Source: Spirochaetia bacterium
GTDB lineage: Bacteria; Spirochaetota; Spirochaetia; CADAEX01
DNA length: 64,000 nt
Reading direction: 5' to 3'
NCBI GenBank assembly: GCA_017535435.1
Contig: JAFXTY010000060.1
Coordinates: 654-64,653 of the forward strand
This document shows positions 3,094-55,813 of the stretch, in pieces. Position 1 is the stretch's first letter; each line of letters starts with the position of its first letter. The notes below the pieces were generated by a model. The model did no database searches and was not told the DNA's origin. It was given only the letters and a program-made list of their open reading frames with translations. A program made the position numbers and the translations under genes.

Positions 3094-4387
3094 TATTATA
3101 GAAAAGAAAAAGAACGGCCAGAAGCTTACTAAGGAGGAACTGGATTTTTTCATCGACGGCTATGTTAAAGGTGTCATCCCTGATTATCAGGTGTCGGCCC
3201 TTTTGATGGCTATTGTCCTCAAGGGGATGGATGATGAGGAGACAGCGGCGCTGACCACTGCCATGCTTAATTCAGGACCCCGGATGGACCTTTCCGGTAT
3301 CAAGGGCTTCAAGGTGGACAAGCACTCCACCGGCGGCGTAGGGGATGACACCACACTGCTGGTTGCCCCTCTGGTTGCTGCCTGCGGATGCAAGGTGGCC
3401 AAGATGTCGGGCCGGGGTCTGGGCTTTACCGGGGGTACACTGGACAAGCTTGAGTCTATTCCCGGCTTCAATGTTTTCCTGGACAACGAGACCTTTGTGA
3501 AGAATGTCTCCAAGGTGGGACTTGCCATAATGGGGCAGACCCAGGATCTGGTTCCTGCCGACAAGAAGCTTTATGCCCTGAGGGATGTGACCGGCACTGT
3601 GCAGAGCCTGCCCCTCATTGCCTCCAGCATAATGAGCAAGAAGATTGCCATGGGCACCGATGCAGTTGTCCTGGATGTGAAAACCGGCAACGGAGCCCTT
3701 ATGCCAGCCTTAAAGGATTCTATAAAATTGGCCGATATAATGGTAAGAATCGGCAAGGCCACAGGTCTTAAGACTACTGCTGTGGTCACCGACATGAACC
3801 AGCCCCTGGGCAACTGCATCGGGAATGCTCTGTCGGTGGAAGAGGCTATCCATGTGCTCAGGGACAACATCGAGTGCGACATCAAGACCATCTCCCTGAC
3901 ATTGGCAGCAAAGATGCTTATTCTGGGTGGAATCTGCGAGTCGGACAGCGAGGCCATGATGATGCTGGAGGAGAAGCTTGCTTCCGGTCAGGCACTGGTG
4001 AAGCTGGCTCAGATGATAAAGACCCAGGGCGGCGACCCTGCTGTGGTGGACGACACCTCCATACTGCCACATGCCAAGGAGCAGATTCCTGTATGTGCCG
4101 ATTCTGCCGGGTATGTGTCGGAGATAATCACACGTGATGTGGGCTCTGCCGCATCCCTTTTAGGGGCAGGCCGGATGACCAAAGAGGATGTGATTGATCC
4201 AGCTGTGGGCATTGTGATCAAGAAACGGCTTGGGGATTATGTGGAGAAAGGCGAGGAGCTTGCCATCTTCCATGTGAACGATAAAAAGAATTTTGAGGAA
4301 GCAGTGGCTAAGTTCAAGAAAGCATATACAATTTCCAAGGATCAGCCTGACGAGCTTCCCCTTATCTATACTGTGATTGAGGATTAG
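3080..4387 (+). CDS. pdp: pyrimidine-nucleoside (thymidine) phosphorylase
   Basis: 435 aa; KHSTGGVGD and glycosyl-transferase family 3 signature regions; C-terminal PYNP domain; overlaps previous gene by 14 nt. Confidence 0.88.
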   Translation: MVFTDIIEKKKNGQKLTKEELDFFIDGYVKGVIPDYQVSALLMAIVLKGMDDEETAALTTAMLNSGPRMDLSGIKGFKVDKHSTGGVGDDTTLLVAPLVAACGCKVAKMSGRGLGFTGGTLDKLESIPGFNVFLDNETFVKNVSKVGLAIMGQTQDLVPADKKLYALRDVTGTVQSLPLIASSIMSKKIAMGTDAVVLDVKTGNGALMPALKDSIKLADIMVRIGKATGLKTTAVVTDMNQPLGNCIGNALSVEEAIHVLRDNIECDIKTISLTLAAKMLILGGICESDSEAMMMLEEKLASGQALVKLAQMIKTQGGDPAVVDDTSILPHAKEQIPVCADSAGYVSEIITRDVGSAASLLGAGRMTKEDVIDPAVGIVIKKRLGDYVEKGEELAIFHVNDKKNFEEAVAKFKKAYTISKDQPDELPLIYTVIED

Positions 4388-6321
4388 TGTTTCCCTTGAA
4401 GAAGCTGGTTTCCATAGTCTTACTGCTTTTGCTTGTTCTCCCTTCTTTATGCTTTGCAGAGCTCTCTTATGACCCGAATGACGAAGTCATGCTTGTTGAT
4501 GTCCCTGTCTATATCGGAGAGGAGGCCTTTATCAAGAAGGCACAGGAGAGAGCGGCGGCGGCAGGACGTTCCCAGCCTTTAGGCCTTGTCCTTTCGGGCG
4601 GTGCAGCCCGGGCCATGGCTCATCTGGGTGTGCTTAAGAAGCTGGAGGAGGAGGGGATTGTCCCCGACTTCATGATAACCAACTCCATGGGTGCCATCAT
4701 CGGACTCCTCTACAGCGCCGGCATCTCCTGTGACGATATCTACAATGTGATGACAGAGTTCACCCTGGGGGAGTTCTTCAAACCCCAGCTGCCGGTGAAG
4801 GGGGGTGTTCTTGATACATCCCGCTTTATTTCGGTGATCCACGGAATCCTGGGGGACAAGCGCATAGAGGAACTGGACATTCCAGTGGCTGTCATCTGCG
4901 AAGACCTTATAACCCGCCGGCAGATTATTTTCGAGGCCGGGGATATGTATGACATTATCGAGGGAAGCATTGTAATCCCTGTGGATTTTGCACCTAAGGA
5001 ATATATGGGATACCTGCTTATGGACGGCGGGTGCACCAACCTGGTTCCTGTGGACCATGCTTACCGCTATACCGACAAGGTTGCAGTCTCCTCAACCTTA
5101 TACACCTTCAAGCAGAACCTGCGGAACTTTGTAACTGTGGTGAACCGCATGCAGGATGTGAGCAAGACAAGGAAGGGAGTGGAGGAGATAAAGAAGCACG
5201 AGAACCTGGTATGGCTCCGGAACCCGGTGGAGAAGTATTCATTCATGGGCTTCGACAAGAGCGATGAGATAATCCAGCTGGGATATGAGTGTGCTTCGAA
5301 GCATATGGCTGAGCTTAAGAGCCTGGCCGAGCTTTCGGACAAGACCGCTGCTGAGCAGGCATCATTCCTTTCCAAGAGAGAGAAAAACAGAGAAAAGATT
5401 GATGATTTCTGCAGGCGTTACCGGAAGACAGAAATGATTCCTCTCCGGGACCTGACTCCGCTGTTCACAGTAGGAATCTCCATGATGGGAGAAATTCCTA
5501 ACGACTACTATCTTAACAACTACAACTATATCTACCTGGGGGAAGAGCTGGGATACAAGACCATGCGGATCAACCTGCGGGAGTACTGGTTCCCCAATAA
5601 TTATGGCCTTGATTCTGCCCTTACCTTTGCCCTGGGAGACTTCTTCAAGTCCAAGACCAGGGGACTGGTGGACTTCAAGGACAACGATCTTCATAAATTC
5701 TATTATTATTCCAACAACGAGATAATCTACTTCTCCGGTGACAATGCCGGAATTGACCCGTTCTGCACCTTTGAGGGAACTATGGACAGGGATATGGATG
5801 AGATTGATTCCTTCCACCGTGCCGGACTTAAGGGATATATCGGCAGGGATAAGTTCATAAGATTCTCGGCTTTCGGATTCAAGGAGAACCGTGATACCGA
5901 CGGCTGGGGTGCATCTGTAACCTTTGACCACAAGCTGATATGGCTGCTGCATCTGGAGGAGAAAGCCACCTACAGGATGCCTCTCCCGGGCAATGACACA
6001 ATCTGTCTGTATAAAAACGACGGTGTACGGGGGAAGACCATAAGTGGAGATTTCGACCGGGTGCTGATGGCCCAGACCACTTTCTACCTTAAGCCTGATT
6101 TTACCCCCAGCCTGGCTGAAGCTTTCATCTTCAATGATGTGAGGCTGGGAGTGTTCGGCGACTTCTATTTCTTTGATGATGTCATATTCACAGCAGGTCT
6201 GTCACTGAAGTTTGACATAAGCTTTATCGGAGTGATGCCGGTCAAGTTCCTGTGCTATGGAGGCTGGGACTTTGACCAGAAGAAGATTTTCACCAAGTTT
6301 GCCATAGGTACGGAGTTCTGA
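4387..6321 (+). CDS. secreted patatin-like phospholipase with C-terminal beta-barrel-like domain (PlpD/type Vd autotransporter-like)
   Basis: 644 aa; GTG start; signal peptide MFPLKKLVSIVLLLLLVLPSLCFA. Patatin motifs: oxyanion LVLSGGAARAMAHLGV, nucleophile-Ser motif ITNSMGAIIG (atypical N in place of first G), and catalytic Asp-Gly LMDGGCTNLVP. The C-terminal half is aromatic/beta-rich and ends ...FAIGTEF (terminal Phe, OMP-like). Confidence 0.7.
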   Translation: MFPLKKLVSIVLLLLLVLPSLCFAELSYDPNDEVMLVDVPVYIGEEAFIKKAQERAAAAGRSQPLGLVLSGGAARAMAHLGVLKKLEEEGIVPDFMITNSMGAIIGLLYSAGISCDDIYNVMTEFTLGEFFKPQLPVKGGVLDTSRFISVIHGILGDKRIEELDIPVAVICEDLITRRQIIFEAGDMYDIIEGSIVIPVDFAPKEYMGYLLMDGGCTNLVPVDHAYRYTDKVAVSSTLYTFKQNLRNFVTVVNRMQDVSKTRKGVEEIKKHENLVWLRNPVEKYSFMGFDKSDEIIQLGYECASKHMAELKSLAELSDKTAAEQASFLSKREKNREKIDDFCRRYRKTEMIPLRDLTPLFTVGISMMGEIPNDYYLNNYNYIYLGEELGYKTMRINLREYWFPNNYGLDSALTFALGDFFKSKTRGLVDFKDNDLHKFYYYSNNEIIYFSGDNAGIDPFCTFEGTMDRDMDEIDSFHRAGLKGYIGRDKFIRFSAFGFKENRDTDGWGASVTFDHKLIWLLHLEEKATYRMPLPGNDTICLYKNDGVRGKTISGDFDRVLMAQTTFYLKPDFTPSLAEAFIFNDVRLGVFGDFYFFDDVIFTAGLSLKFDISFIGVMPVKFLCYGGWDFDQKKIFTKFAIGTEF

Positions 6322-18849: not shown

Positions 18850-18939
<90 letters not shown>

Positions 18940-19008
18940 CAGCCAGGCACTGTGCAATTGAGCTCCGCCCAACCCCGTCAGGATCGGAAGGTAGCAGCGG
19001 TAAGCGGT

Positions 19009-19045
19009 AGCCAATGTGATGCAGTCTGCTTGGCTGTTTTTTTTT
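19009..19045 (+). terminator. rho-independent terminator (AGCCAA…TTGGCT stem + T9)
   Basis: 6-bp stem with 15-nt loop followed by nine T residues, ~75 nt downstream of tRNA-Ser. Confidence 0.55.
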
Positions 19046-19055
19046 GGGAGGTTTT

Positions 19056-20759
19056 ATGCGGCGTATTATTTTGGCAGTTCTCTTGTTCAGCCTTTTCCTT
19101 CATCCTGCTATGGCTCAGGGTGTCACTTTTTATCCACAGGAAACAACAGCATTTATAGAAAGCATTGAGGATACCGAAACCCTTGACCTTCTCTTTTCCG
19201 ATGCCACTGGCAAAATACCCTATGTAAGTCTTCAAGACGGTCTGGATTTTCTCTATGGAACAGGGGAATGTACCAGCGAGGTAAAGGATGGAATTATTGT
19301 TGTCACCAGGACCAACGGAGCATCCCTTGAGGTGGATACCGAGGAAGAGACAATTTATTTTTCCGACTATGACCTCTTTTTGAAACAGCCTGATGCTGTC
19401 ACCCTCCTTGATATTGTCTTGGATGATACTGTCATCAAGCATGAGCCATTAAGCTTTGAGAGCAGGGGACGTCCTCTGACTGTAGAATATGGGTCTTTTG
19501 ATATAGATATATTCAAGGCTGGTGACCTTTGCCTTCTTCCTCTCCAGACTTTTTCTGATATCTTCGGTATAGCTTCTCTTGGGGCTCTGCTTTACAACGG
19601 GGAGGATTTGTTCTTCGTCTCCTCAAAAAGCTGCCTGAAAAATTATGATGATGAGCTTACAGAGCTGGGAAAAAAGTATTATTCGGTAGAACCGGCTGAA
19701 CTTGACGAGGCTTTTGCCGATTTCAACTACAAGGAGCTGGGGCTTAACCTGCAGCTCAACTATGGTCTTGCAGAGAGTCATAATATAACTAAAATCAGGG
19801 AATGGTTCGAGATGCTGGGGCTGGATGAGAAGCTTTCCTCCACCGATCCATTCCAAGGCGATTATGCACTGGCAGAAATATGCTACAAGTATTTCGGCGA
19901 TCTCCACAGCGCTTTCCATGTCCGGTCTCCATACACAGGAGTGCACCGGGAAGGGATAGATATTGTCCCCAGTCCGTCAGTCAAAAGCTATATCCAGAAT
20001 CTGCATGAAAGGCTTTCTGCCCGGGCGGAATATTTCCCTGATGGTGTCCCGGGATTCCAGAAGAAGGGAGACACTGCATACATCACCTTTGATGATTTCA
20101 GCTTTGATCGGTCCAGGGATTATGCAAAAGAACCCCTTACCCGCAAGGAGAAACGCGCTATAGAGAAGGATTTTGCCTCCAGCGGAATTGATACTGTGGG
20201 CCTTATCCATTATGCAAATGAGGAGATTCAGGATAATCCTAAGATAAGGAATGTGGTCATTGACCTTTCCTGCAACACAGGCGGCTCTGTGGATGCCGAA
20301 ATCTTTGTGGCCAGCTGGCTTTTGGGACAGAGCTCTCTGGCTGTACGGAGGAATATAACCGACTGTCAGTCTGCCACATCCTATACAGCAGACGTTAACT
20401 TTGATGGAAAATTCGGAGAGGCCGATGATTATGTAGGCGACCGCCGCATATTCTGTATTATCTCCAGCACTACTTTCTCCTGCGGAAACCTGCTGGCCTC
20501 CATGCTGGCAGAATCTGGGAAAACTACTCTTATCGGAGCAAAGACCGGCGGCGGTGCATGTGCTGTTTATCTTACATCCTCAGCGGCAGGATCCCTGTTC
20601 CAGACCTCAAGCCCATGGCTTTTCAGCTCGGTGCGGAATGGCGCCTTCTTTGATATCGAGGGTGGAGTTGTCCCCGACTATAAGCTTACAGGCTATTCTT
20701 CGTTCTACGACAGATCAGAGAGAAAAGGGTTGACTGCTTTCATCAAGAAGCTATACTGA
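19056..20759 (+). CDS. secreted S41-like (tail-specific protease family) peptidase
   Basis: Signal peptide MRRIILAVLLFSLFLHPAMA (ATG 19056 after GGGAGG; track TTG 19044 is upstream in frame). C-terminal region IISSTTFSCGNLLASMLAESGKTTLIGAKTGGG resembles the S41 catalytic Ser/Lys region; family call moderate. Confidence 0.5.
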   Translation: MRRIILAVLLFSLFLHPAMAQGVTFYPQETTAFIESIEDTETLDLLFSDATGKIPYVSLQDGLDFLYGTGECTSEVKDGIIVVTRTNGASLEVDTEEETIYFSDYDLFLKQPDAVTLLDIVLDDTVIKHEPLSFESRGRPLTVEYGSFDIDIFKAGDLCLLPLQTFSDIFGIASLGALLYNGEDLFFVSSKSCLKNYDDELTELGKKYYSVEPAELDEAFADFNYKELGLNLQLNYGLAESHNITKIREWFEMLGLDEKLSSTDPFQGDYALAEICYKYFGDLHSAFHVRSPYTGVHREGIDIVPSPSVKSYIQNLHERLSARAEYFPDGVPGFQKKGDTAYITFDDFSFDRSRDYAKEPLTRKEKRAIEKDFASSGIDTVGLIHYANEEIQDNPKIRNVVIDLSCNTGGSVDAEIFVASWLLGQSSLAVRRNITDCQSATSYTADVNFDGKFGEADDYVGDRRIFCIISSTTFSCGNLLASMLAESGKTTLIGAKTGGGACAVYLTSSAAGSLFQTSSPWLFSSVRNGAFFDIEGGVVPDYKLTGYSSFYDRSERKGLTAFIKKLY

Positions 20760-20760
20760 G

Positions 20761-22815
20761 TTACACCAGATTGATGAAGAATGTCAGAACCAGGCTGTTT
20801 ATAAAGTCTGAGAACATACCGCCCACAATAGGAACTAAAAGATAAGCTTTTACCGAAGGGAGATATTTGTCGGTGAGCACCTGCATGTTGACCATGGCAT
20901 TCGGTGTGGCACCCATGCCGAAACCGCAGGTTCCCGCGGTAAGTATAGCTGCGTCATAATTGCGTCCCATGGCATTGAATATGACGAAATAGGCAAACAC
21001 AAACATCAGCAGAGTCTGCCCCAGGAGCATGACAAGCAGAGGCAATGCCAGATCTGCCAGCTGCCACAGCTTGAGAGTCATCATGGCAATACCCAGGAAC
21101 AGAGAGAGGCAGATACCTCCAAGATCAGCTATCTCACCCATATGGATGGAGAACTTACCGGAGAACTCCCCCCAGTTGCGCATTACAGCCGCAACTATCA
21201 TGGCCCCGATATAGGCAGGGAATGTCATGCCGCTTTTTGAGAGCAGGTGGGATATGATGGTGCCTAAACCCATGGCTATCATAAGCTGATATGCGGCGGA
21301 GGCATAGAGGCTGGGGTTCTTTCGATGCTTTATCTCATCCTCCACCAGTATGGAGTCATCCTGGACAACTGCAGTCTTGAGCAGGTCCCGCTTTTTGATA
21401 AGATGTGCTCCTAAAGGGCCGCCCATGAGAGAGCCCATTATAAGACCGAAGGTGGCGGCAGCGGTGCACAGGGTGATGGCGCTGTCCAGTCCCAGGTCTT
21501 CCAGTACCGATCCGAAGGCCCCGGCAGTACCATGACCACCCACCATAGGGATAGATCCGGTGCAGAGTCCTATGAAAGGGCTTACCCCCATCACCTTTGC
21601 CAGGAACAGCGCCAGCAGGTTCTGTGACAGAATAAGGAAAAATATGAGCACCAGGAATACGACCAGGGCCATGCCGCCGCTTTTAAGCACTTTGAAGTTG
21701 GCCTGAAAACCTACGGAAGTGAAGAAGATAATCATGCAGACATCACGCAACGTCTCGTCAAACACAAATTCCGCTATGCCGGCAGAATAGAGGATGCAGG
21801 AGAGAATAGCAAACACCAGGCCACCTGTAACAGGGCTGGGGATACAGAACTTCTCCAGGAAGGAAGTTCTGCTGCGCATGAACATTCCCAGGTAAAGCAC
21901 ACCTACTGCCATAGCCATAGTAAGGAACATATTTATATGTATCTTGAATATTCCGGAAGGTTTTTCCTCTTCAAACACTTTTCCAAAGCTTACCTGCTGA
22001 AGGGCAGGGTTGTTCTCATTCAGTATCTTGAGCAGGGTCTCTTCGGCCTCGGGCACCAGTTTGTCTGATGCCACAAGCACTGCGGTCACAGCAATGGTGG
22101 GGATATCTGTGTTCTGACCACGGTAGCTGCCGGCTGGAATAGTGCTTTTTGTATAGACAGGGTTTGTCTCAATTATTCTGTCGCGTATTTCTTCGGACAA
22201 CGGAATGAAGCGTATATCCAGGTCATTGGAAACATTTGTTATAGACAGTACAGGAATGCCGGCAGTCAGAAAGAAGGCATCTATTTCTCCGGAAGCCAGC
22301 GCAGCATCTGCATCGGCAAAGGAGAGAGGTGTTTCTATGATATCATACAGATGGATATTGGCGGCATCCAGAATATCAATGGCATTCTTACGTCCACCGG
22401 AATCCAGTTCACCCAGAGAGAGCCGCTTGCCCCTGAGGTCTTTGACTTCTTTGATATTTGAACTGGCAGGAACTACTATGTGGCAGCTTTCGGGATACAG
22501 ACCTGTGATCACATGGAATCCTTCCTGCCTGTTTCCTGTAAGCAGGTTGTTCTGAGTCATGGCAATATCAAGGAAGTCCCGGCTTATAAGGCGGATATTT
22601 GCAGCAGCACCCCCGGTGGACACAACTTCGATGCCATACTCTGTCTTCTGGCGTACAAGCTTGTCCAAAGCCAGGCCGTAGCTGTAGTAGTTGCCTCCTA
22701 TGTTGCCGGTTCCAAGTTTTAATGTTTTTCCTGCATTCTCTTTCCCGGAGCAGCTGGTAAAAAGGCAGACTGCCAGAACGAAGCATAAAGCTGCAACTAT
22801 TGCTTTTTTCTTCAT
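20761..22815 (-). CDS. TAXI-family solute-binding lipoprotein domain fused to GltS-like sodium/glutamate symporter
   Basis: 684 aa; lipobox LFTSCSG; TAXI-like SBP motif GTGNIGGNYYSYG. C-terminal ~370 aa is polytopic with FFTSVGFQA and a second repeat, as in GltS (ESS family). Confidence 0.6.
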   Translation of the reverse strand: MKKKAIVAALCFVLAVCLFTSCSGKENAGKTLKLGTGNIGGNYYSYGLALDKLVRQKTEYGIEVVSTGGAAANIRLISRDFLDIAMTQNNLLTGNRQEGFHVITGLYPESCHIVVPASSNIKEVKDLRGKRLSLGELDSGGRKNAIDILDAANIHLYDIIETPLSFADADAALASGEIDAFFLTAGIPVLSITNVSNDLDIRFIPLSEEIRDRIIETNPVYTKSTIPAGSYRGQNTDIPTIAVTAVLVASDKLVPEAEETLLKILNENNPALQQVSFGKVFEEEKPSGIFKIHINMFLTMAMAVGVLYLGMFMRSRTSFLEKFCIPSPVTGGLVFAILSCILYSAGIAEFVFDETLRDVCMIIFFTSVGFQANFKVLKSGGMALVVFLVLIFFLILSQNLLALFLAKVMGVSPFIGLCTGSIPMVGGHGTAGAFGSVLEDLGLDSAITLCTAAATFGLIMGSLMGGPLGAHLIKKRDLLKTAVVQDDSILVEDEIKHRKNPSLYASAAYQLMIAMGLGTIISHLLSKSGMTFPAYIGAMIVAAVMRNWGEFSGKFSIHMGEIADLGGICLSLFLGIAMMTLKLWQLADLALPLLVMLLGQTLLMFVFAYFVIFNAMGRNYDAAILTAGTCGFGMGATPNAMVNMQVLTDKYLPSVKAYLLVPIVGGMFSDFINSLVLTFFINLV

Positions 22816-22820
22816 ATTAC

Positions 22821-24470
22821 CTACTTTTTATAAGTTTCTAAATCCAGCTCTTTTTCACTGGCGGCAATCATGACTGTTGCGGCGATATCTCCGTTTACAT
22901 TGGAGGCTGTAAGAATTCTGTCGATAACATTGTAGATACCGATGATAAAGCCTATTGCTGCTGTAGAAATTCCTAAGGAAGAGAGAATTGTGGCCATGAC
23001 CACAATGCCGCAGTTAGGAACACCTGGAGTTCCGATGATCAGAAGGAAAGTAAGAACTGCTATCTTTATACATGCTGATGTGTCAAGGTCGACTCCGCAC
23101 ATTTTGGCAAGGAGAATGACGATGATAATATTATTCATAGCACCAGCATTCATGTTTATGGTGGCACCCAGAGGAATGGCGAAGGAGGTGATTTTCTTCG
23201 ATGCACCCAGCCTTTTCTGGCAGAAGTCAATGGTCATGGGGATGCAGGCACTGCTGCTTGACAGGGTGAATGGTGTCAGCAGATACCCAAAGGTCTTTTT
23301 TACGTATGGCATCGGCGAGACATGTCCACCCAGGGCGATGATGAAGCAATAGAGGAAATAAAGGATAATAGCACCTGTGACAGTTGCCAGCAGATAAGTG
23401 AGCAAGACAAGCAGCGTGGACATTTCACAGGAGAACACCAGAAGAGCCATGGAGGCAAAGGCAACCAGAGGCATGAAGGTGATGATGATTTCCATCATCT
23501 TGAGTAAAAGGGAGTTGGCCTCGTTTAAGAAGCTCCTTAGTGAATTGATTTTATCACCTAGTATGTTCAGGGCTGATCCGGCAAGTACTGCGACAAAAAT
23601 AATCTGGAGCATGTTGCTTTCAAGAACAGGCAGAACCATATTGCTAGGGATGATGCCCAGCAGAATCGTCTTCACTGAGACATCGGCTGTGTTATGAATA
23701 TCCTGCGGCAATGCAGAAAGGTTTTCAGGAAGTGCAGGCACTCCACCGCCGAAGAATAATTTGGCCAGTCCGAATCCGATTAGAATTGCCACAACTGTAG
23801 TGGCAAAGTAGGTGCCCACAACCTTGCCGCCGATTCTTCCCGCCTCTTTGCTGCCCGACAGCCCGGAGAGGCTGGTTGCGATGGAGAAGAACACCAACGG
23901 TGCCAGCATAAGGGAAATAGCATTTAGGAAAAGGGTCTGTATTACAGAGAAAATATTATCGGCAACAAATCCCGATACTGCCTGGGGCAGCCATTTCATT
24001 CCCAGTCCCACAAAGAATCCCAGAATCATGAAGGCGAAGGTGAAAGCCACTTTCCGGCTGTCGGTCCTGTGGGTATGGATGATTATTATATTGTTGCCAT
24101 TGCGGCGGCTGAAGCTTAAGTCGGCCTGGTAGGTGCGGAAAATCAGATCCCGGTAGTAATCCTCGCTCTCTATATCCCAGCTTTGTATGGATTCAAAGGG
24201 ATTATATGCCTCCCCGTGGGATGAGATTGTGACTGTCACATCACCGAACAGCTTATTTATCTTTGCCTTGACAGTCTGTCCTCCATTCTCATAGAGCCGG
24301 ACAATAATCTCTTCCAGAAGCAGGATAGTGCTTGCCACTTCTTTTGAGGATGCTTTCATCTCTAAAAGCCGTTTCCGCAGTTTCTCGCTCTGCTCGCTGA
24401 TTTTATCAAGGGGGATTAAAAATTTATTTTCTTCCTGATGTCCCTTTCTGTTCATTTGTGTCCTATGCAT
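22821..24470 (-). CDS. dicarboxylate/amino-acid:cation symporter (DAACS) with ~150-aa N-terminal cytoplasmic extension
   Basis: 549 aa; C-terminal 400 aa show the DAACS TM/hairpin pattern (…SSSACIPMTID…, …NMNAGAMNNII…); N-terminal soluble domain unassigned. Confidence 0.8.
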   Translation of the reverse strand: MHRTQMNRKGHQEENKFLIPLDKISEQSEKLRKRLLEMKASSKEVASTILLLEEIIVRLYENGGQTVKAKINKLFGDVTVTISSHGEAYNPFESIQSWDIESEDYYRDLIFRTYQADLSFSRRNGNNIIIIHTHRTDSRKVAFTFAFMILGFFVGLGMKWLPQAVSGFVADNIFSVIQTLFLNAISLMLAPLVFFSIATSLSGLSGSKEAGRIGGKVVGTYFATTVVAILIGFGLAKLFFGGGVPALPENLSALPQDIHNTADVSVKTILLGIIPSNMVLPVLESNMLQIIFVAVLAGSALNILGDKINSLRSFLNEANSLLLKMMEIIITFMPLVAFASMALLVFSCEMSTLLVLLTYLLATVTGAIILYFLYCFIIALGGHVSPMPYVKKTFGYLLTPFTLSSSSACIPMTIDFCQKRLGASKKITSFAIPLGATINMNAGAMNNIIIVILLAKMCGVDLDTSACIKIAVLTFLLIIGTPGVPNCGIVVMATILSSLGISTAAIGFIIGIYNVIDRILTASNVNGDIAATVMIAASEKELDLETYKK

Positions 24471-25243
24471 TCTCCCATCTTTACAGGGGTTTCAAAATAT
24501 TTCTTTGGCACTGAGAGTTTGTTCTTCTCTATTAGAAGGATAACAGTTGAGCCACCATATTCAAAGTAGCCTTTCTCCAGGCCCCGCTCCGCTTTTCCCT
24601 CCTGCTCCAGGTTCACGATACGGCCCACCAGCATGGCTCCAACCTCCATCTGCACCACTTTGCCGAACTCCTTCGATTCAATGACAGTATACTCACGGCA
24701 GTTCTGGGCAAATACTGGAAAGGTTTCCAGCGCTATCGGACGTACAGTGTGCAAGATGCCAGGGATAAAGATATTTGGTCCTTTTGTCCCGGAGACAGGG
24801 TAGGCATACCGGTGGTAATTGTCCACACAGAGGCGGAACACCAGGCACCAGCCGCCGTTGTATCGGGATGCCAGTTCTTTGTCATTCAAAAGAGAGGTTA
24901 TGGTATAGGCCGACTGCTTTATGGGGACCACAGTTCCCTCGTCATTTATGGGATAGGCAGAGAGGAGCCCGTCGCATGGAGCGCACATATGATCCGGGTT
25001 CATATCGAAAGGGCGCTTTCCATCTTTAATCCTGCGTCGGAAGAACTGGTTGAAGGTTTTTATTCCATCCAGCTCGTAGTCATTGCAATTTATGTTGTTC
25101 TTTTTGACAAAGCCTTTTATGAGGAATGATGACAGGGGTGAATCCATGAATGAGCCACAGAGCTTTGAGATAGCACGGGATGCAAGAATCTTTAAAACGC
25201 ATCTTCCGGCGGCAGTTTTATATAAGAAGGTGAGCCCGTCCAT
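24452..25243 (-). CDS. psd: phosphatidylserine decarboxylase proenzyme
   Basis: 263 aa; C-terminal GST (EYGGSTVILL) self-cleavage/pyruvoyl site and PSD family body; adjacent to pssA. Confidence 0.85.
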   Translation of the reverse strand: MDGLTFLYKTAAGRCVLKILASRAISKLCGSFMDSPLSSFLIKGFVKKNNINCNDYELDGIKTFNQFFRRRIKDGKRPFDMNPDHMCAPCDGLLSAYPINDEGTVVPIKQSAYTITSLLNDKELASRYNGGWCLVFRLCVDNYHRYAYPVSGTKGPNIFIPGILHTVRPIALETFPVFAQNCREYTVIESKEFGKVVQMEVGAMLVGRIVNLEQEGKAERGLEKGYFEYGGSTVILLIEKNKLSVPKKYFETPVKMGECIGHK

Positions 25244-25258
25244 GGCAGTCAGTGCTTA

Positions 25259-25969
25259 TCAGCGGTTTTTAAGGAATATGAATATAAGGCCCAGTACAAT
25301 AGCCTCGGCTGCACCGAAAGCAATCATCACAAGCACATCTTTTGTGGTAGGTTTTTTAACCCTTATATCAGAGATGAACAGGATGCCCATGATAACCATA
25401 AGCAGAGAGTAGAGGAGGGTGAAATCCATGCTGAACACTATGTGGCACAGAAGGACAGTGGGGAACACAAGGGCGGCGCTGGTCACAGGGAGTCCATGGA
25501 AGAACTTGTCTGAAGAATTGTCAGAGTTCTGCCGCTCCTCCTCCAGCACATTGAAGAAGGCCAGACGGATCAAAGCTGCCAAGGTATAGAATGTGGCAGT
25601 TATAGTGAAAGCGATTTTCACACCCATAGCCCGTTCGGTGATCTTTAAGAAGAAGATAGTGCTGGGCAATGTCTCGTAGTAGATGCTGCTCCGCATCATG
25701 GCAATGCCGATACATGCAGGCAGCACACCGAATGCCACCAGGTCAGAGAGAGAGTCGATCTGGATTCCGAATTTTTTCATCCGCTCGGTCCGGTTCTTCT
25801 TGGTCCGGGCCACCTTGCCGTCAAAGGCATCGCACAGTCCGCAGAACAGGAGGAAAAGCATTCCGATATAGGGATGCCCGATGTTGTTCAGGCAGAAGAT
25901 AATTCCGCATGTGGCGGAAATCATGGAAAGATATGTAAGGATGACTGTGTAATCATAAAAACCAATCAT
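25259..25969 (-). CDS. pssA: CDP-diacylglycerol--serine O-phosphatidyltransferase (CDP-alcohol phosphatidyltransferase family)
   Basis: 236 aa polytopic; CDP-OH_P_transf motif DAFDGKVAR…G…DSLSDLVAFG. Confidence 0.85.
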   Translation of the reverse strand: MIGFYDYTVILTYLSMISATCGIIFCLNNIGHPYIGMLFLLFCGLCDAFDGKVARTKKNRTERMKKFGIQIDSLSDLVAFGVLPACIGIAMMRSSIYYETLPSTIFFLKITERAMGVKIAFTITATFYTLAALIRLAFFNVLEEERQNSDNSSDKFFHGLPVTSAALVFPTVLLCHIVFSMDFTLLYSLLMVIMGILFISDIRVKKPTTKDVLVMIAFGAAEAIVLGLIFIFLKNR

Positions 25970-27012
25970 GGCTCAACCTCGCTTTTTCTTCTGTGCTGTA
26001 TAAACCGGATGAATATATACCCTAATATTACTATAAAAAGTGTTACTATGCTACAGATATAGAAAGAAATTCCTCGGCTTGCCACAGCCAGTCCCACAGC
26101 CATGTCATCTGTCATCAGCATGGAATAGCCGAAGAACATGATGAATTCAGAGATTCCGACAGCACCGGGTATAGGGATGAAGTTGGATCCCACCACCACA
26201 TAGCACTGGATGATGAATATCATAAGACCATTGGAATAGTTGCCATGGAGCGCAAAGTATACAAAGACCGGAACCAGTATCTGGCTTGCCCGCTGCATAA
26301 GGTTGAGGAGGAAAGTCTTGCTGTAGAGCCCTTTTGCTCCGGAAAGCTCTTTTACGCACAGATTGTATTTTTCCATTCCCTTGGTGAACCGGGTCTCCAG
26401 CTTTTCGGCCAGATGCTTGAAATGGAACTTGCGAAGCAGATAGAAGATGACGCTTCCAGCCTTCAGAAGCACTGTTTTTTTCTTAAGCAGGATTATGAAG
26501 CAGAGCGTCAGGAGCACCATGGAGAAGATGCCGATCAGGATCATAACCTTGCAGGAGAGAGGGAACTGGAAAAAGATGCTGGGGAAGAAGATTACTGAAA
26601 GAAGCCCCAGGGTTATGATGGCCAGAGTATACATGGTCAGATTGAGGATGAGGGCTGCTGTCACCACCTCGGCAGGGAGACCATCGATATACATGAAATA
26701 GGCACTGGCAGGCTGTCCGCCGGTGGCCGATGGTGTTATGGAGGAGAAGTAGATGTCGGCAGAGGCATAGAGGAACCCTTTCCTGTGCTTTACAGGGTAG
26801 CCCAGGGAGCGGGTTATAAGTATAAGCGATTTTCCCTCGAACCAGATGAAAAGGAGCATGCAGACAACAGCCGGGATAAGCCAAAGGACATTGGCATTAC
26901 GTATTGCCTCTATGAAATCCGGGACCGACAGACTGCTCCTATCAAAGCAGATATACATGGTGAGAATGGAGAGGATCAGTGTAACTATGGTCCAGAACAG
27001 CTCTTTCTTCAT
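25966..27012 (-). CDS. flippase-like / lysylphosphatidylglycerol-synthase TM-region family membrane protein
   Basis: 348 aa with ~8 TM helices; overlaps pssA by 4 nt; resembles UPF0104/MprF-N-terminal flippase-like domain by topology and conserved-Gly pattern; tentative. Confidence 0.45.
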   Translation of the reverse strand: MKKELFWTIVTLILSILTMYICFDRSSLSVPDFIEAIRNANVLWLIPAVVCMLLFIWFEGKSLILITRSLGYPVKHRKGFLYASADIYFSSITPSATGGQPASAYFMYIDGLPAEVVTAALILNLTMYTLAIITLGLLSVIFFPSIFFQFPLSCKVMILIGIFSMVLLTLCFIILLKKKTVLLKAGSVIFYLLRKFHFKHLAEKLETRFTKGMEKYNLCVKELSGAKGLYSKTFLLNLMQRASQILVPVFVYFALHGNYSNGLMIFIIQCYVVVGSNFIPIPGAVGISEFIMFFGYSMLMTDDMAVGLAVASRGISFYICSIVTLFIVILGYIFIRFIQHRRKSEVEP

Positions 27013-27060
27013 AACGTTATAATATTATATCGGCAGAAAAATAGTGTATATAACCAATTT

Positions 27061-28197
27061 TTAGCGTAGAGGTTCGTACCAGCGGTTCTGGTAGTCCTGG
27101 ATTTTGGAGAATGGCACAGTTTCCCCTATGTAAGGGGTGATGATCGTGATGCCGCTTCCCCCGGCAGCCTTGACCACCCGCTGGACGCTGTCGTCCCAGG
27201 GATGTCGTGCCAGCCTGAAGGTGCCCCAGTGGATAGGGACGACATGCTTTGCCCCCACAGCCTTGGCGGCTTCGAAGGATTCTTCCGGCTTCATGTGCAC
27301 CGACGGCCAGCGGATGTCGTACTGCCCCGCCTCTATGAAGGCCAGGTCAAAGCTGCCGTATTTTTCTCCTATGCGCTGGAAGTGGTTGTCCCAGCCGCTG
27401 TCGCCGCTCTCGAAGATTCTGTATTTCCCGTCGGACACCACCCAGGAGGCCCACAGGGTCTCAAACCGGTCGGAAAGAGTCCTGCCGGAAAAATGGCGGG
27501 CCGGGGTGCAGGCTATGTCGATGCCATCTATGCAGATTTCCTCCCACCAGGCCATATTGGTGATTTTATCCTCTGCTACCCCGAATTTTTTCAGGCGCTT
27601 TTCAACACCCAGGGGGCACACATATTTCTGGACCTTGGAATCCAGCTTTTTTATTGTATTCTTGTCCAGATGGTCGTAGTGATCATGGGATATGACAAGG
27701 ATGTGGATTTCCGGCAGGTCGGCGACAGCGCAGGGGGGCGGGGTGAACCGCTTTGGCCCGGCGAACTGCACAGGAGAGGAACGTTTGCTGAAGACAGGGT
27801 CGAAAAGGATATTTTTGCCAGCCATCTGCAGGAGCAGACTGGAGTGGCCGAACCAAGTGAAGAACAGCTTGCCGCCTGTGGTGTCACCGGTGAAATCGGG
27901 GGTCTTGAGGGGTAACCTGTTTTCCGGTATGACCTCTTTGTCCGAAAGAGCCCAGATAGGAGCATCTTTAGGAATGTCATTCAGAAGTATGAACTCGTGT
28001 TCATTGTAGAAAATCTTGCCATCGTAATTTGAAGCCCGTTTCCCATAATCAGCGGGGTCTGAGAATATCACCCAGGGCAAAAGCAGAAAAAGAATCAAAA
28101 CAAAAACCCTGTGCCAAAGCTGGCACAGGGAACATATCTTTTTAGGAGAATTACTTTTACTATTATTCCATGTTTCCAGGGAATCTTGGAATTGCAT
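27061..28197 (-). CDS. metallo-beta-lactamase-fold hydrolase, NAPE-PLD-like
   Basis: Signal/TM then FTWFGHSSLLLQMAGKNILFDPVFS and ISHDHYDHLD (HxHxDH) as in Lactamase_B_2/NAPE-PLD family. Longest ORF start (28272) overlaps the upstream TrpB2 gene by 110 nt, so start moved to Met 28197 (MQFQDSLETWN…). Confidence 0.6.
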   Translation of the reverse strand: MQFQDSLETWNNSKSNSPKKICSLCQLWHRVFVLILFLLLPWVIFSDPADYGKRASNYDGKIFYNEHEFILLNDIPKDAPIWALSDKEVIPENRLPLKTPDFTGDTTGGKLFFTWFGHSSLLLQMAGKNILFDPVFSKRSSPVQFAGPKRFTPPPCAVADLPEIHILVISHDHYDHLDKNTIKKLDSKVQKYVCPLGVEKRLKKFGVAEDKITNMAWWEEICIDGIDIACTPARHFSGRTLSDRFETLWASWVVSDGKYRIFESGDSGWDNHFQRIGEKYGSFDLAFIEAGQYDIRWPSVHMKPEESFEAAKAVGAKHVVPIHWGTFRLARHPWDDSVQRVVKAAGGSGITIITPYIGETVPFSKIQDYQNRWYEPLR

Positions 28198-29548
28198 CAA
28201 AACCTCTCTTGAGGTCAGCGTCGGTTGGGATATAGTCGCCCATCTGACCGTCGTTGTACTTCTGGTAAGCAACCAGGTCGAAGTAGCCGGTTCCGGTAAG
28301 ACCGAATACGATTGTCTTCTCCTCGCCGGTCTCTTTGCACTTGAGAGCCTCGTCGATAGCTACGCGGATAGCATGGCTGGACTCCGGTGCCGGGAGGATT
28401 CCCTCAATTCTTGCGAACTGCTCTGCTGCCTGGAATACTGATGTCTGCTCAACAGCCCGTGCCTCAATAAGCTTGTCATCATACAGCTGGGAAAGAACAG
28501 AGCTCATGCCGTGGTAGCGGAGTCCGCCTGCGTGATTTGCAGATGGGATGAACTCGGAACCCAGTGTGTACATCTTTGCCAGAGGACATACATGGCCTGT
28601 GTCGCAGAAGTCGTATGCATATACACCTCTGGTGAAGCTTGGACAGGATGCAGGCTCTACAGCGATGATCTGATAGTCTGCCTCGCCCCGGAGCTTTCTT
28701 CCCATGAATGGAGAGATAAGACCGCCAAGGTTGGAACCGCCGCCGGCACATCCGATGATCATATCTGGCTTAACACCATATTTATCCAGTGCTGTCATTG
28801 TCTCAAGTCCGATTACCGACTGATGCAGCAGTACCTGAGAGAGCACACTTCCAAGAACATAGCGGTAGCCTTCCTGTGTTGTAGCTGCTTCAACAGCCTC
28901 GGAGATTGCGCATCCAAGGCTTCCTGTTGTTCCAGGGAACTCTTTGAGGATTTTGCGTCCAACTTCAGTGGTGTCAGATGGAGAAGGAGTCACCTTTGCT
29001 CCATAGGTTCGCATAACTTCCCGGCGGAATGGCTTCTGCTCGTAGGAAACTTTTACCATGTAGACCTGGCAGTCAAGGCCAAAGTATGCACATGCCATGG
29101 AGAGTGCTGTTCCCCACTGTCCTGCGCCAGTCTCGGTGGTCACACCCTTGAGGCCCTGCTTCTTTGCAAAATAGGCTTGGGCGATGGCGGAATTCAGCTT
29201 GTGGCTTCCTGAAGTGTTGTTTCCTTCAAACTTATAGTAGATCTTTGCAGGGGTTCCCAGCTGCTTCTCAAGGCAGTAAGCCCTTACTAATGGTGATGGG
29301 CGGTACATCTTGTAGAAGTTCCGGATCTCCTCTGGAATCTCGATATATGGAGTGGTGTCATCCAACTCCTGCTTTGCCAGCTCCTCACAGAAGATAGGGG
29401 TAAGCTCCTCCAGCTTCAGGGGCTGATGTGTACCCGGGTGGAGCAGGGGTGCCGGTTTGTTCTTCATGTCTGCGCGGAGATTATACCAGCTCTTTGGCAA
29501 CTCACTTTCTGACAGATAGATTTTATAAGGGATTTCGTTTTTGCTCAT
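28163..29548 (-). CDS. trpB: TrpB2-type tryptophan synthase beta-like PLP enzyme
   Basis: 461 aa; PLP-Lys motif GSHKLN; length and N-terminal extension typical of TrpB2; no trpA adjacent. Confidence 0.85.
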   Translation of the reverse strand: MSKNEIPYKIYLSESELPKSWYNLRADMKNKPAPLLHPGTHQPLKLEELTPIFCEELAKQELDDTTPYIEIPEEIRNFYKMYRPSPLVRAYCLEKQLGTPAKIYYKFEGNNTSGSHKLNSAIAQAYFAKKQGLKGVTTETGAGQWGTALSMACAYFGLDCQVYMVKVSYEQKPFRREVMRTYGAKVTPSPSDTTEVGRKILKEFPGTTGSLGCAISEAVEAATTQEGYRYVLGSVLSQVLLHQSVIGLETMTALDKYGVKPDMIIGCAGGGSNLGGLISPFMGRKLRGEADYQIIAVEPASCPSFTRGVYAYDFCDTGHVCPLAKMYTLGSEFIPSANHAGGLRYHGMSSVLSQLYDDKLIEARAVEQTSVFQAAEQFARIEGILPAPESSHAIRVAIDEALKCKETGEEKTIVFGLTGTGYFDLVAYQKYNDGQMGDYIPTDADLKRGFDAIPRFPGNME

Positions 29549-39569: not shown

Positions 39570-39643
39570 GGGCCCTTAGCTCAGCTGGATAGAGCAACTG
39601 CCTTCTAAGCCGTAGGTCAGAAGTTCGAATCTTCTAGGGCCTA
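39570..39643 (+). tRNA. tRNA-Arg (anticodon TCT)
   Basis: Acceptor GGGCCCT/AGGGCCT (G1-U72), D-arm TAGCTCAGCTGGATAGAGC, anticodon loop CTTCTAA (TCT, U33, A37) with one stem mismatch, T-arm AGAAG-TTCGAAT-CTTCT, discriminator A. Confidence 0.7.
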
Positions 39644-49245: not shown

Positions 49246-49306
49246 ATATCGGCAATATATAAATGGTATATAAAGTAAAAATACCACTTTATATTTTGCC
49301 GATATT
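49246..49306. promoter_or_regulatory. inverted repeat ATATCGGCAA(49246-55)/TTGCCGATAT(49297-306) flanking an AT-rich hairpin upstream of the Fic gene; candidate operator/promoter region
   Basis: 10-bp perfect reverse-complementary arms ~40 nt apart; TATATA-like -10 candidates between and after them. Confidence 0.35.
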
Positions 49307-49322
49307 GTGTTATTATATAGAC

Positions 49323-50192
49323 ATGGGAAAAGTAGATTATCTGCAGGTCGCCGATATAGCCAAAGCATGGGAAGTCTCAGACCGCAGTGTGCGGAACTAC
49401 TGTTGCCATGGGCGGGTCCCTGGGGCCATCATTGCCGGCAAGACTTGGCAGATACCTGCAGATACCCCTAAACCAAAGCGGCAGATTCGTCATTGCAGGA
49501 AAAAAGAGGAGACTGTTCTGGAGCAGCTTAAGAGGGAAAAGGATTCTGGGTTTAAGGGAGGGATGTACCATCGTATACAGATTGATTTTACTTATAACTC
49601 TAATCATATAGAGGGCTCCCGCCTGACTCCGGAGCAGACCCGCTATATCTTTGAGACCAACACCATCGGGATAACCGATAAAAGCGTCAATGTAAATGAT
49701 ATCATAGAGACAGTGAACCACTTTCGATGTGTAGATCTGGCTATCGAAGGGGCCAAGTCAAAGCTGACCGAAAGTTTTATCAAGCAGCTTCATTTTATAC
49801 TTAAGAACGGAACCTCCGATTCCCGGAAAAGCTGGTTCAAGGTTGGCGAATACAAGCTGCTGGAGAACGAGGTAGGTGGCATGGAGACAGCGGCCCCCGA
49901 AGATGTGAAGCCCCGGATGAAGGAACTCCTTGCCTGGTACAATGCAAAGAAGGTTGTGACCTTGGATGATATTCTTGATTTTCATGTACGGTTTGAGCGT
50001 ATCCATCCGTTCCAGGATGGAAACGGCAGGGTGGGGCGGCTGATTATGTTCAAGGAGTGTTTAAAAAACAACCTAAAACCGATTATAATAACCGAACAGC
50101 TCAAGTGGTTCTACTACCGCGGTCTCAAGGAGTGGTTCCATGAGCGTGGTTTTCTACGTGAGACTTGTCTGGAGGCAATGGAGGGGGTATAA
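49323..50192 (+). CDS. Fic-family protein (AMPylase-type) with N-terminal excisionase-type HTH, class II auto-inhibited
   Basis: Canonical Fic motif HPFQDGNGRVGR; upstream inhibitory-helix motif SNHIEG ([ST]xxxE[GN]) in same polypeptide; N-term MGKVDYLQVADIAKAWEVSDRSVRNYC HTH. Track ORF starts 60 nt earlier (49263) inside the promoter-like AT-rich region. Confidence 0.85.
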   Translation: MGKVDYLQVADIAKAWEVSDRSVRNYCCHGRVPGAIIAGKTWQIPADTPKPKRQIRHCRKKEETVLEQLKREKDSGFKGGMYHRIQIDFTYNSNHIEGSRLTPEQTRYIFETNTIGITDKSVNVNDIIETVNHFRCVDLAIEGAKSKLTESFIKQLHFILKNGTSDSRKSWFKVGEYKLLENEVGGMETAAPEDVKPRMKELLAWYNAKKVVTLDDILDFHVRFERIHPFQDGNGRVGRLIMFKECLKNNLKPIIITEQLKWFYYRGLKEWFHERGFLRETCLEAMEGV

Positions 50193-50201
50193 TTTATAGG
50201 T

Positions 50202-51815: not shown

Positions 51816-52530
51816 GCTTATGAATGCTAATGGTATCTCTATTGCAGATATTTCAAGGTGTCATAATTGCAAGTTTTTTAAAAATTTAAAATACAATGAA
51901 ATATTTAAATGTAATATAAACAATGATAATTCTTTGGCAGTAACTGTTGCTGAGTTATTATATCCAGAAAAAGTGAAGTATATAAAGAATTATTTATTTA
52001 AAGATTCTAAAAATTGGCGAAAAGATTTGGTAAATTATGGCAAACAGTACAAAAAAATAATTATTACTGCAATGTTATTTGATACAGATTTCTATGTATA
52101 TGCCAGTAACTGGTGCTATCTTATGAGATTAGCCGCAGATCAGTATTATGCCAGACATAAAGAAAAAAAATTCTATGTGCTTGACCGGCCCGCTGAGGGG
52201 TATGGTGCAAAGATTTTTGATATTGGAGAGCCAATGGTGCTGGAGGGCACCGGAGTTCTGACTGTGGCTGGCAGATATATTCATGAAGATAATGAAGGGG
52301 ATCCCAGTAAAAAGATAATGAAGACTACCTTTAATTTTGAGTTTGGAAAGGAAGTATTGGAAGGGAAAGACGTTAGAATAACTATAGAGTGTGATGATAA
52401 TGTTAATAAGACTAGAGAAATAGTAATTGATTCCAGGTCTCTACAGGATGGAAAGAATAAAGTTCATAAAACTGTCGACCTAGATTTTGAGAATGGTTTT
52501 GATATTTCTGTAAAAAAAAATATCCTCTAG
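51790..52530 (+). CDS. hypothetical protein, AT-rich cassette gene 2
   Basis: 246 aa; overlaps gene 1 by 26 nt (translational coupling); Cys pair CHNCKFF…C; no family recognised. Confidence 0.5.
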   Translation: MEKMTFLNELMNANGISIADISRCHNCKFFKNLKYNEIFKCNINNDNSLAVTVAELLYPEKVKYIKNYLFKDSKNWRKDLVNYGKQYKKIIITAMLFDTDFYVYASNWCYLMRLAADQYYARHKEKKFYVLDRPAEGYGAKIFDIGEPMVLEGTGVLTVAGRYIHEDNEGDPSKKIMKTTFNFEFGKEVLEGKDVRITIECDDNVNKTREIVIDSRSLQDGKNKVHKTVDLDFENGFDISVKKNIL

Positions 52531-52576
52531 AGAAATTTCTTTCCCCATAAAATCATTATATGGGTAGGAGGAAAAA

Positions 52577-54553: not shown

Positions 54554-54555
54554 TC

Positions 54556-54598
54556 TGAGCGGGACTGAGTAATCAGCCTCGCTTTTTTTATTTTTTTT
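54556..54598 (+). terminator. probable terminator (imperfect hairpin + T7ATTTTTTTT)
   Basis: AGCGG…CC(T)CGCT stem with internal CTGA/TCAG hairpin followed by long T-run immediately after cassette gene 3. Confidence 0.45.
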
Positions 54599-54701
54599 CT
54601 AAAATTTTAATTTTTGTTACCCCAAATATCTATATGAACTATTGAGAGGGCAAAATGGCGTGTTTCGCCATCCCCTCATACATATTAAGTGGAGGAAAAC
54701 T

Positions 54702-55550: not shown

Positions 55551-55614
55551 TCACTTTAGCAATCATAGCGTTTATTATCTCAAAACTGTGAGAAGCGAAG
55601 GAAAAATAATAATA

Positions 55615-55803
55615 ATGACTTTTGAAGAAATTAAGAAGCAGATTGAAATAGGCAATCTTGAGTGGAAAGAACTGCTTACTATGAGGGCTTTATTCCCAAA
55701 GTATCGGCAGGATTTAAGACACGAAGTAATTAAGAGGAACATCCCCTGGTGGATGCCATGTAAGGATTGGATTGCGAAAAGAATTGAGAAAAAGATCAAC
55801 TAA
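55615..55803 (+). CDS. small hypothetical protein (62 aa from MTFEEIKK…)
   Basis: Short ORF between NYN and DUF1232 genes; Trp/Lys-rich; weak RBS; could be non-coding. Confidence 0.3.
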   Translation: MTFEEIKKQIEIGNLEWKELLTMRALFPKYRQDLRHEVIKRNIPWWMPCKDWIAKRIEKKIN

Positions 55804-55813
55804 GGAGTAAAAA

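Follow-up and report, generated by a model that had tools for sequence, protein, structure and literature searches.

This work describes a block of four genes on the minus strand of a 64,000-nucleotide stretch of DNA from a Spirochaetia bacterium (contig JAFXTY010000060.1, positions 654 to 64,653; referred to here as the window, whose own numbering is used for its features). Three of the genes encode a stand-alone flippase-like membrane protein of the PF03706 family, a probable phosphatidylserine (PS) synthase (PssA), and a PS decarboxylase (Psd), and this trio is a unit that is widely conserved across phyla. The fourth gene, at the head of the block, encodes a metallo-beta-lactamase (MBL)-fold protein that sequence and model place in the N-acyl-phosphatidylethanolamine phospholipase D (NAPE-PLD) family, and it is a clade-specific addition to the trio. 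We tentatively propose that phosphatidylethanolamine (PE) synthesis, translocation of PE to the outer leaflet, and its turnover at the outer face may be encoded together in this block, which is laid out in transcription order as follows.

27061..28197, minus strand: NAPE-PLD-family MBL-fold protein, predicted phosphodiesterase (378 aa from ATG 28197; mechanical open reading frame [ORF] from TTG 28272)
27013..27060, minus strand: conserved 48-nt spacer between the MBL and flippase-like genes, with a TATAAT-like hexamer
25966..27012, minus strand: stand-alone, polytopic PplT/MprF-flippase-domain protein (PF03706; 348 aa), putative transbilayer transporter of PE (or PS)
25259..25969, minus strand: CDP-alcohol phosphatidyltransferase, probable PssA (PF01066; 236 aa)
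24452..25243, minus strand: Psd proenzyme (PF02666; 263 aa), with GGST self-cleavage motif

The flippase-like gene and pssA overlap by 4 nt, and a gap of 15 nt separates pssA from psd. A preliminary description of the window, made from its letters and translations, had placed four co-directional, tightly packed minus-strand genes at 24452-28272. Their order, strand, and packing stand, and the motifs quoted at the time can be read in the translations (DGKVAR...G..ID...D in PssA, GGST in Psd, and SHDHYDH in the MBL protein). The start of the MBL gene is revised: rather than TTG 28272, the likely start is ATG 28197, which has an AGAGAGG ribosome-binding site (RBS) 5 nt upstream.

Conservation of the trio and of the four-gene block

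Gene neighborhoods were surveyed from both ends of the block. The flippase-side scan covered 80 metagenome loci, 59 of which had enough downstream sequence to score the trio and 54 of which could be scored for an upstream MBL gene. The MBL-side scan covered 80 loci from many phyla, with one genome per species and a neighborhood of 10 kb. Flippase, PssA, and Psd genes were found in the same order and on the same strand at 36 of the 59 informative metagenome loci, a proportion that follows the identity of the flippase-like protein (8 of 8 at ≥50%, 20 of 27 at 38 to 49%, and 8 of 24 at <38%). The named relatives carrying the trio belong to Spirochaetia, Lachnospiraceae, and Clostridia, with Lachnospiraceae and Clostridia accounting for the distant loci. 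In related loci, psd invariably lies 3' of pssA. The 4-nt overlap between the flippase stop and the pssA start recurs in loci L081, L085, and L087, and in many distant loci the two genes lie 80 to 130 nt apart. Serine-related genes also border the trio: a serine hydroxymethyltransferase gene lies directly upstream in Treponema-like contigs, and an SDF transporter gene and trpB2 are found in the window clade, where trpB2 is not always adjacent to the block.

The complete block (MBL-flippase-PssA-Psd) is intact in all six members of this clade (the window, L081, L082, L084, L086, and L088), with identities of 75 to 83% for the MBL protein and 87 to 96% for the flippase-like protein. Its flanks are shuffled, with trpB2, an SDR gene, or an MFS gene upstream and the SDF gene, a GltS gene, or an S41 peptidase gene downstream. 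Apparent truncations of the flippase gene in L082 and L084 proved to be N-filled scaffold gaps, not deletions. The closest relatives of the window are rumen and gut metagenome contigs and metagenome-assembled genomes labeled "Spirochaetia bacterium"; the source is Treponema-like.

At Clostridia-like loci, the same-strand gene directly 5' of the flippase gene often encodes a PAP2 or PAP2_3 membrane phosphatase (10 of 35 upstream neighbors). Eight PAP2 neighbors were confirmed singly, with gaps of ~130 nt or less and scores near or above the cutoffs (L099, L102, L104, L123, L127, L145, L148, and L150). The PAP2 enzyme occupies the slot held by the MBL protein in the window clade and represents an independent parallel. 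Such PAP2 enzymes have outward-facing active sites, as PgpB, LpxE, and BcrC do.

Family assignments within the trio

The flippase-like protein matches LPG_synthase_TM (PF03706) at 2.5e-32 (113 bits versus a cutoff of 33.4), covering profile positions 5 to 301 of 302, and NCBIfam TIGR00374 ("flippase-like domain-containing protein") at 83.2 bits versus a cutoff of 43.2. The MprF-like flippase assignment made in the preliminary description thus exceeds both curated thresholds. Comparison with the Protein Data Bank (PDB) by sequence gave no match, even at E ≤ 1. In a fold search, MprF structures were the top matches (TM-score on the query of 0.41 to 0.50; probability of 0.75 to 1.0), with all others at <0.2. 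MprF, the lysyl-phosphatidylglycerol (Lys-PG) synthase/flippase (PDB entries 7duw, 7f47, and 6lvf), has the same Pfam domain, and in both systems a synthase would pass an aminophospholipid to a dedicated translocator. Unlike MprF, the window protein is half the size and has no aminoacyl-phosphatidylglycerol synthase domain, and its cargo would be PS or PE in place of Lys-PG.

The name PplT has been given to stand-alone PF03706 proteins, for which a general role in phospholipid translocation in prokaryotes has been proposed (bioRxiv 10.1101/2022.03.11.483950). The same study reports that Escherichia coli YbhN, a PF03706 protein encoded in the ybhP-clsB-ybhN operon, binds several lipid synthases in two-hybrid assays and that bulk lipid composition is unchanged (bioRxiv 10.1101/2022.03.11.483950). 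We confirmed this operon in the E. coli K-12 annotation. It resembles the block described here in combining, in overlapping genes, a stand-alone PF03706 protein with a phospholipid headgroup enzyme and a putative phosphoesterase (YbhP, EEP family). It differs in that the partner is ClsB, a cardiolipin synthase of the phospholipase D type, rather than PssA and Psd, and in that the hydrolase has another fold; pairwise similarity between YbhN and the window protein is negligible (E = 0.15).

Rare fusions of the PF03706 domain to PssA were found among 1.84 billion representative sequences, namely, P0238 (581 aa) and the junction-spanning P0402 (490 aa). In both, the fusion point is the position of the 4-nt gene overlap. 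Two other homologues of the flippase-like protein, P0455 and P0456, have 250 to 300 extra C-terminal residues.

For PssA, the Pfam match is CDP-OH_P_transf (PF01066; 1.4e-11, 45.4 bits versus a cutoff of 22), and the motif DGKVAR-x12-G-IQI-D-SLS-D, read from the translation, fits the pattern DG(x)2AR...G(x)3D(x)3D. The best NCBIfam models are archaetidylserine synthase NF038087 (79 bits versus 240) and pssA TIGR00473 (66 versus 107). Because these models match best and psd is invariably adjacent, serine is the likely substrate, and the protein is a probable PS synthase of the integral-membrane (Bacillus subtilis/archaeal) type, subclass II. Psd matches PS_Dcarbxylase (PF02666) at 8e-51 (173 bits, exceeding the gathering cutoff; profile positions 1 to 197 of 198), carries its GGST motif near the C terminus, and scores 232 bits against NCBIfam PRK00723, for which the equivalog cutoff is 371.

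NAPE-PLD family assignment and predicted export of the MBL protein

The MBL protein matches Pfam Lactamase_B_2 (PF12706) at 3e-41 (141.7 bits versus a cutoff of 27), and its AlphaFold model (pLDDT of 85.2) has the beta-sandwich pattern of the alpha-beta/beta-alpha MBL fold. Three comparisons with solved structures gave the same result. As a single sequence, the protein matches human NAPE-PLD (PDB entry 4qn9) at 1.2e-52, followed by a UPF0173 protein at 5e-9. With a profile of 21 homologues, the values are 1.8e-66 for 4qn9 and 2.4e-12 for the next match. Foldseek gives 2e-29 for 4qn9 (TM-score on the target of 0.80) and 1.1e-17 for a UlaG-type protein. All other MBL proteins are weaker than NAPE-PLD by at least 12 orders of magnitude. 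As the preliminary description had supposed, the protein groups with NAPE-PLD and not with beta-lactamases or RNase-type MBL enzymes. It is likewise closer to NAPE-PLD than to the RNase Z/ELAC, UlaG, or glyoxalase II subfamilies.

Likeness to the human enzyme extends over a core alignment of ~240 residues, with an identity of 33% over the full Foldseek alignment. It includes an SP.Q..GPKRF segment common to both and the seven ligands of a binuclear zinc site (HxHxDH plus His, Asp, and His). In the window protein, these are H171, H173, D175, H176, H235, D266, and H323, which are invariant in the 21 homologues and align with H185, H187, D189, H190, H253, D284, and H343 of 4qn9. The latter are the zinc ligands of human NAPE-PLD. 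Purifying selection acts on the gene (dN/dS of 0.11 to 0.15 versus four relatives). On the strength of these comparisons, we place the protein in the NAPE-PLD family, which is common in bacteria, and suggest that it may act on N-acyl-PE or another PE-derived phosphodiester.

Human NAPE-PLD lies at the cytosolic membrane face and has no signal sequence. In contrast, the MBL protein begins with a hydrophobic signal/anchor (..KKICSLCQLWHR-VFVLILFLLLPWVIF-SDPADY). Spirochaete homologues carry lipoboxes or signal-peptidase sites (FLTGC, AMAFA [AxA type], and MRKKHLLFITWLLLLPWLVF), as do homologues from Proteobacteria and Bacteroidota (LLTGC, AAGC, FSAC, and others). Because of this N terminus and the sites in its homologues, all read by inspection of the sequences, the protein is probably exported, with its catalytic domain outside the cytoplasm.

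In L086 (3874-5904) and L081 (5312-7799), the MBL gene is preceded by SDR reductase genes and an MFS transporter or carboxylesterase gene. An SDR enzyme was considered as a partner of the MBL protein and dropped, as the SDR protein beside it is of one subfamily in L081 and of another in L086. Likewise, the MFS gene 5' of the MBL gene in L086 was considered as a lysophospholipid transporter and dropped, as it gave only generic MFS matches.

Transcription around the MBL gene

Two features bear on how the head of the block may be transcribed.

28163..29548, minus strand: TrpB-like (TrpB2) pyridoxal phosphate enzyme, the upstream neighbor (NCBIfam PRK12391, 682 bits, exceeding the cutoff)
28107..28130, with T-run to 28097, minus strand: intrinsic-terminator hairpin (terminator scan and RNA fold)

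The MBL ORF shares 35 nt with the trpB2-like gene, and the hairpin starts 32 nt past the trpB2 stop. It consists of a 10-bp stem and a GCTT loop, followed by TTTTTGTTTT, and folds at -22.8 kcal/mol (z = -5.7), with none of 200 shuffled sequences as stable. The stem is kept in L084 and also, with a single wobble pair, in L088, where the hairpin lies between genes and is followed by an RBS and ATG belonging to the MBL gene. The window and L084 have lost this L088-type start; there, the ORF begins at the ATG inside trpB2 and crosses the hairpin. Because terminator-like hairpins flank trpB2 on both sides (29693-29670 and 28130-28107), trpB2 is probably its own transcription unit. The MBL gene could be expressed by read-through, which ribosomes translating across the hairpin might assist.

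Alternatively, the conserved 48-nt spacer, with its TATAAT-like element, may be the main site from which the trio is transcribed. Alignment of the spacer with those of L081, L086, and L088 gives the conserved sequence TTATATATACTATTTTTCTGCCGATAxAAT. A promoter scan did not call this spacer, and a search for a sigma-70-type promoter for the MBL gene inside the trpB2 3' end gave nothing convincing. Rfam searches returned no riboswitch or known RNA in the cluster.

A model for the block and its alternatives

In the model that we favor, which we would put at somewhat less than an even chance as a whole, PssA would convert CDP-diacylglycerol and serine to PS at the cytoplasmic face, and Psd would decarboxylate PS to PE. 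The PF03706 protein, which would be translationally coupled to PssA, would bring the new lipid, PE or perhaps PS, to the outer leaflet, in the role played elsewhere by PetA, an unrelated protein of the DedA family. The exported, membrane-tethered di-zinc MBL protein, encoded at the head of the trio, would meet the outward-facing lipid and cut the glycerophosphodiester bond of a PE-derived or PE-like lipid (N-acyl-PE or lyso-N-acyl-PE), giving phosphatidic acid and (N-acyl)ethanolamine. Synthesis of the headgroup, its export, and its turnover at the outer face would thus be co-expressed.

The closest precedent is the pssA-petA-psd operon of B. subtilis, in which PetA, of the DedA family, is required for outward-facing PE (PMC10193950). 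From this parallel and the MprF domain, we infer phospholipid translocation by the PF03706 protein. Both systems place PE genes and a polytopic membrane protein in one operon (petA is also known as ybfM), and both show synteny across related genomes. They differ in that the PF03706 transporter is not homologous to DedA, the order here is transporter-pssA-psd, and an extra hydrolase stands at the head; moreover, the role of PetA is experimental, whereas the window system is known from its genes. In some fusion proteins, the place of the MprF flippase domain is taken by a DedA domain (PMC10193950). By analogy, the trio may be regarded as the reciprocal of that swap, with an MprF-type domain placed in a PE operon.

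In different lineages, PF03706 genes stand beside a member of one of three unrelated phosphoesterase families (NAPE-PLD-like, PAP2, and, with YbhP, EEP), a pattern suggestive of a common plan in which a synthase, a translocator, and a phosphoesterase are combined. Placement of the phosphoesterase at the outer face is proposed here for the MBL and PAP2 enzymes. Recurrence of the pairing between PF03706 proteins and phosphoesterases supports functional coupling over chance adjacency and does not of itself identify the substrate.

Several observations weigh against this model. As to gene order, the MBL gene lies upstream of the trio at only 1 of the 54 metagenome loci, and none of the 80 genome loci in the MBL-side scan has a Psd, PssA, or flippase gene within 10 kb. 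Three relatives carry the MBL gene alone (L083, L169, and L170, i.e., a spirochaete contig, Treponema, and Lachnospiraceae, at 61, 54, and 49% identity), and across 73 unrelated loci the genes most often found close to bacterial NAPE-PLD family members encode assorted reductases of the SDR type. Conservation of the MBL gene next to psd, a point raised in the preliminary description, therefore holds within the narrow clade and fails outside it, and a general NAPE-PLD-psd linkage is ruled out by the genome loci. As to substrate, mammalian NAPE-PLD does not cleave plain PE, the block contains no N-acyltransferase gene, and a literature search yielded no NAPE-PLD family protein from bacteria for which a substrate is established; a search for N-acyl-PE in Butyrivibrio gave nothing usable. 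As to expression, the terminator sits inside the 5' (signal-sequence) coding region of the MBL gene. As to the trio, PssA and Psd both miss the NCBIfam equivalog cutoffs, the all-helical model of the flippase-like protein is of moderate quality (pLDDT of 70.6), and its fold matches to MprF carry weak Foldseek E values (0.01 to 1.3). Finally, the flippase-PssA fusions could be frameshift artifacts rather than real proteins; with P0238 and the fragment P0402 as the only cases, we dropped them as strong Rosetta-stone evidence.

In a first alternative, which we hold to be possible though rather doubtful, the trio is still a unit of PE synthesis and translocation, but the MBL gene is a passenger that a lineage-specific rearrangement brought to its head. 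The gene would encode a lone exported hydrolase with no functional link to PssA and Psd, whose substrate would be something else, perhaps a lipid from the diet or the host or some other phosphodiester. The family is scattered over many phyla among unrelated neighbors and away from PS/PE genes, the MBL 5' end has been remodeled around a terminator, and the conserved spacer with its TATAAT-like hexamer would allow the trio to keep its own promoter. However, the block has stayed intact in 6/6 clade members despite shuffled flanks, the nearest characterized relative of the MBL protein (NAPE-PLD) acts on a PE derivative, and an outward-facing lipid enzyme of the PAP2 family holds the same slot elsewhere.

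A second alternative reverses the direction of lipid flow. Rumen treponemes depend on exogenous fatty acids, and relatives of the window come from rumen and gut metagenomes. The MBL protein, predicted to be extracytoplasmic, might strip exogenous phospholipids (e.g., N-acyl-PE from plant feed) to phosphatidic acid, which the PF03706 protein would carry inward for CDP-diacylglycerol synthase, PssA, and Psd to rebuild PE, with the neighboring transporters importing serine. Three patatin-like lipases and a PLAAT-like enzyme in the window fit such salvage, and the transport direction of PF03706 proteins is not established (bioRxiv 10.1101/2022.03.11.483950). We nevertheless consider it unlikely: the trio is kept without the MBL gene in most lineages, the block contains neither cdsA nor an acyltransferase gene, and MprF and PetA, the sole studied analogues, move lipid outward.

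It is more unlikely still that the PF03706 protein is an obligatory membrane partner or scaffold of PssA, stabilizing it or channeling substrate rather than transporting lipid: the 4-nt start/stop overlap and occasional fusions do suggest 1:1 complexes, and YbhN binds lipid synthases in two-hybrid assays with bulk lipids unchanged, but translocation by this domain has experimental support in MprF, a genuine, unrelated PE transporter holds the equivalent slot in Bacillus, and the flippase and pssA genes are well separated in many distant loci.

Other lipid genes in the window

The preliminary description had also counted three patatin genes and one LRAT gene in the same 64 kb as part of an unusually lipid-rich setting. 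All four are present, as listed below, and they lie 18 to 35 kb from the cluster and are not part of it. The supposed lipid richness of the window thus draws on genes unlinked to the operon.

4387-6321, plus strand: patatin gene
58800-59879, plus strand: patatin gene
59904-60368, plus strand: LRAT (PLAAT-like) gene
63151-63996, minus strand: patatin gene

The best PDB matches of the LRAT protein are PLAAT3 and PLAAT2, at ~1e-11. Its H-H-C catalytic set is intact (H24, H36, and the Cys of NCEHF), and a C-terminal hydrophobic tail gives it a mammalian PLAAT-like architecture. The gene lies 24 nt past the patatin gene at 58800-59879, at the edge of a low-GC island, and the two could be a lipid-remodeling pair or a toxin/effector pair.

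Among the activities of mammalian PLAATs is the formation of N-acyl-PE. With a PLAAT-like gene and a NAPE-PLD homologue, the genome would encode relatives of both animal steps of N-acylethanolamine formation. One could then imagine gut and rumen anaerobes running a mammalian-style two-step route on their own surface, in which PssA and Psd would make PE, the PF03706 protein would expose it, a PLAAT/LRAT enzyme would N-acylate it, and the exported NAPE-PLD homologue would release N-acylethanolamines to the gut lumen. We regard this extension of the model as a long shot. A search for PLAAT-like/LRAT genes near the MBL gene in other loci found none, even at E ≤ 10.

Downstream neighbors and other features of the window

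The co-directional run of genes does not end at psd, as the operon of the preliminary description did, but continues through two transporter genes.

22821..24470, minus strand: SDF-family (DctA/GltP/SstT-like) symporter (PF00375, 2.1e-80, residues 146 to 537)
20761..22815, minus strand: fusion of an NMT1_3 (TAXI-like) solute-binding domain, lipoprotein type, to a GltS sodium/glutamate symporter (684 aa; PF16868, 1.3e-48; PF03616, 2.2e-105)

The SDF gene overlaps psd by 19 nt, and the NMT1_3-GltS fusion gene, with which the run ends, starts 5 nt past the SDF gene. Among the NCBIfam matches of the symporter is SstT (2.8e-19), and all are under the cutoff; its soluble N-terminal extension (~145 aa, 24030-24470) has no Pfam, NCBIfam, or PDB relative. 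The SDF gene is in the same place in L084 and lies 5' of the block in L086, and the fusion gene is kept downstream of the block in L081, L082, and L084. The two transporters probably supply the amino-acid substrate, and the SDF symporter may supply an amino acid such as serine.

Elsewhere in the window, a low-GC island on the plus strand (49263-58344) has a GC content of 0.29 to 0.43, versus ~0.49 in the remainder, and a strong GC skew. The first gene of the island encodes a Fic-like protein that matches both the candidate defense family PDC-S04 (1e-102) and SoFic; several large ORFs without a family match and an NYN-domain protein come after it. Two tRNA genes and a small signal recognition particle (SRP) RNA were detected with Rfam (18850-18934, 18941-19038, and 39570-39643, all on the plus strand). 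The SRP RNA is overlapped by a mechanical ORF (18978-19442, minus strand) that probably does not represent a gene.

Significance

All four protein families of the block are known, and operons that join a PF03706 gene to lipid synthase genes, as well as PE operons with a transporter gene, have already been described. Our literature search found no description of the PF03706-PssA-Psd trio as a widespread unit of gut Spirochaetia and Clostridia, nor of its extension by an exported NAPE-PLD homologue or a PAP2 enzyme. The identity of the proteins that transfer phospholipids across the membranes of bacteria is a question of long standing, and to our knowledge only MprF (for Lys-PG) and, recently, PetA (for PE) have experimental support in this role. 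The trio gives PF03706 proteins a specific candidate cargo. For the bacterial NAPE-PLD family, the genomic context described here uniquely points to PE-derived lipids. If N-acylethanolamines were indeed released in the gut by this route, such bacteria would be a microbial source of host-active, endocannabinoid-like lipid signals.

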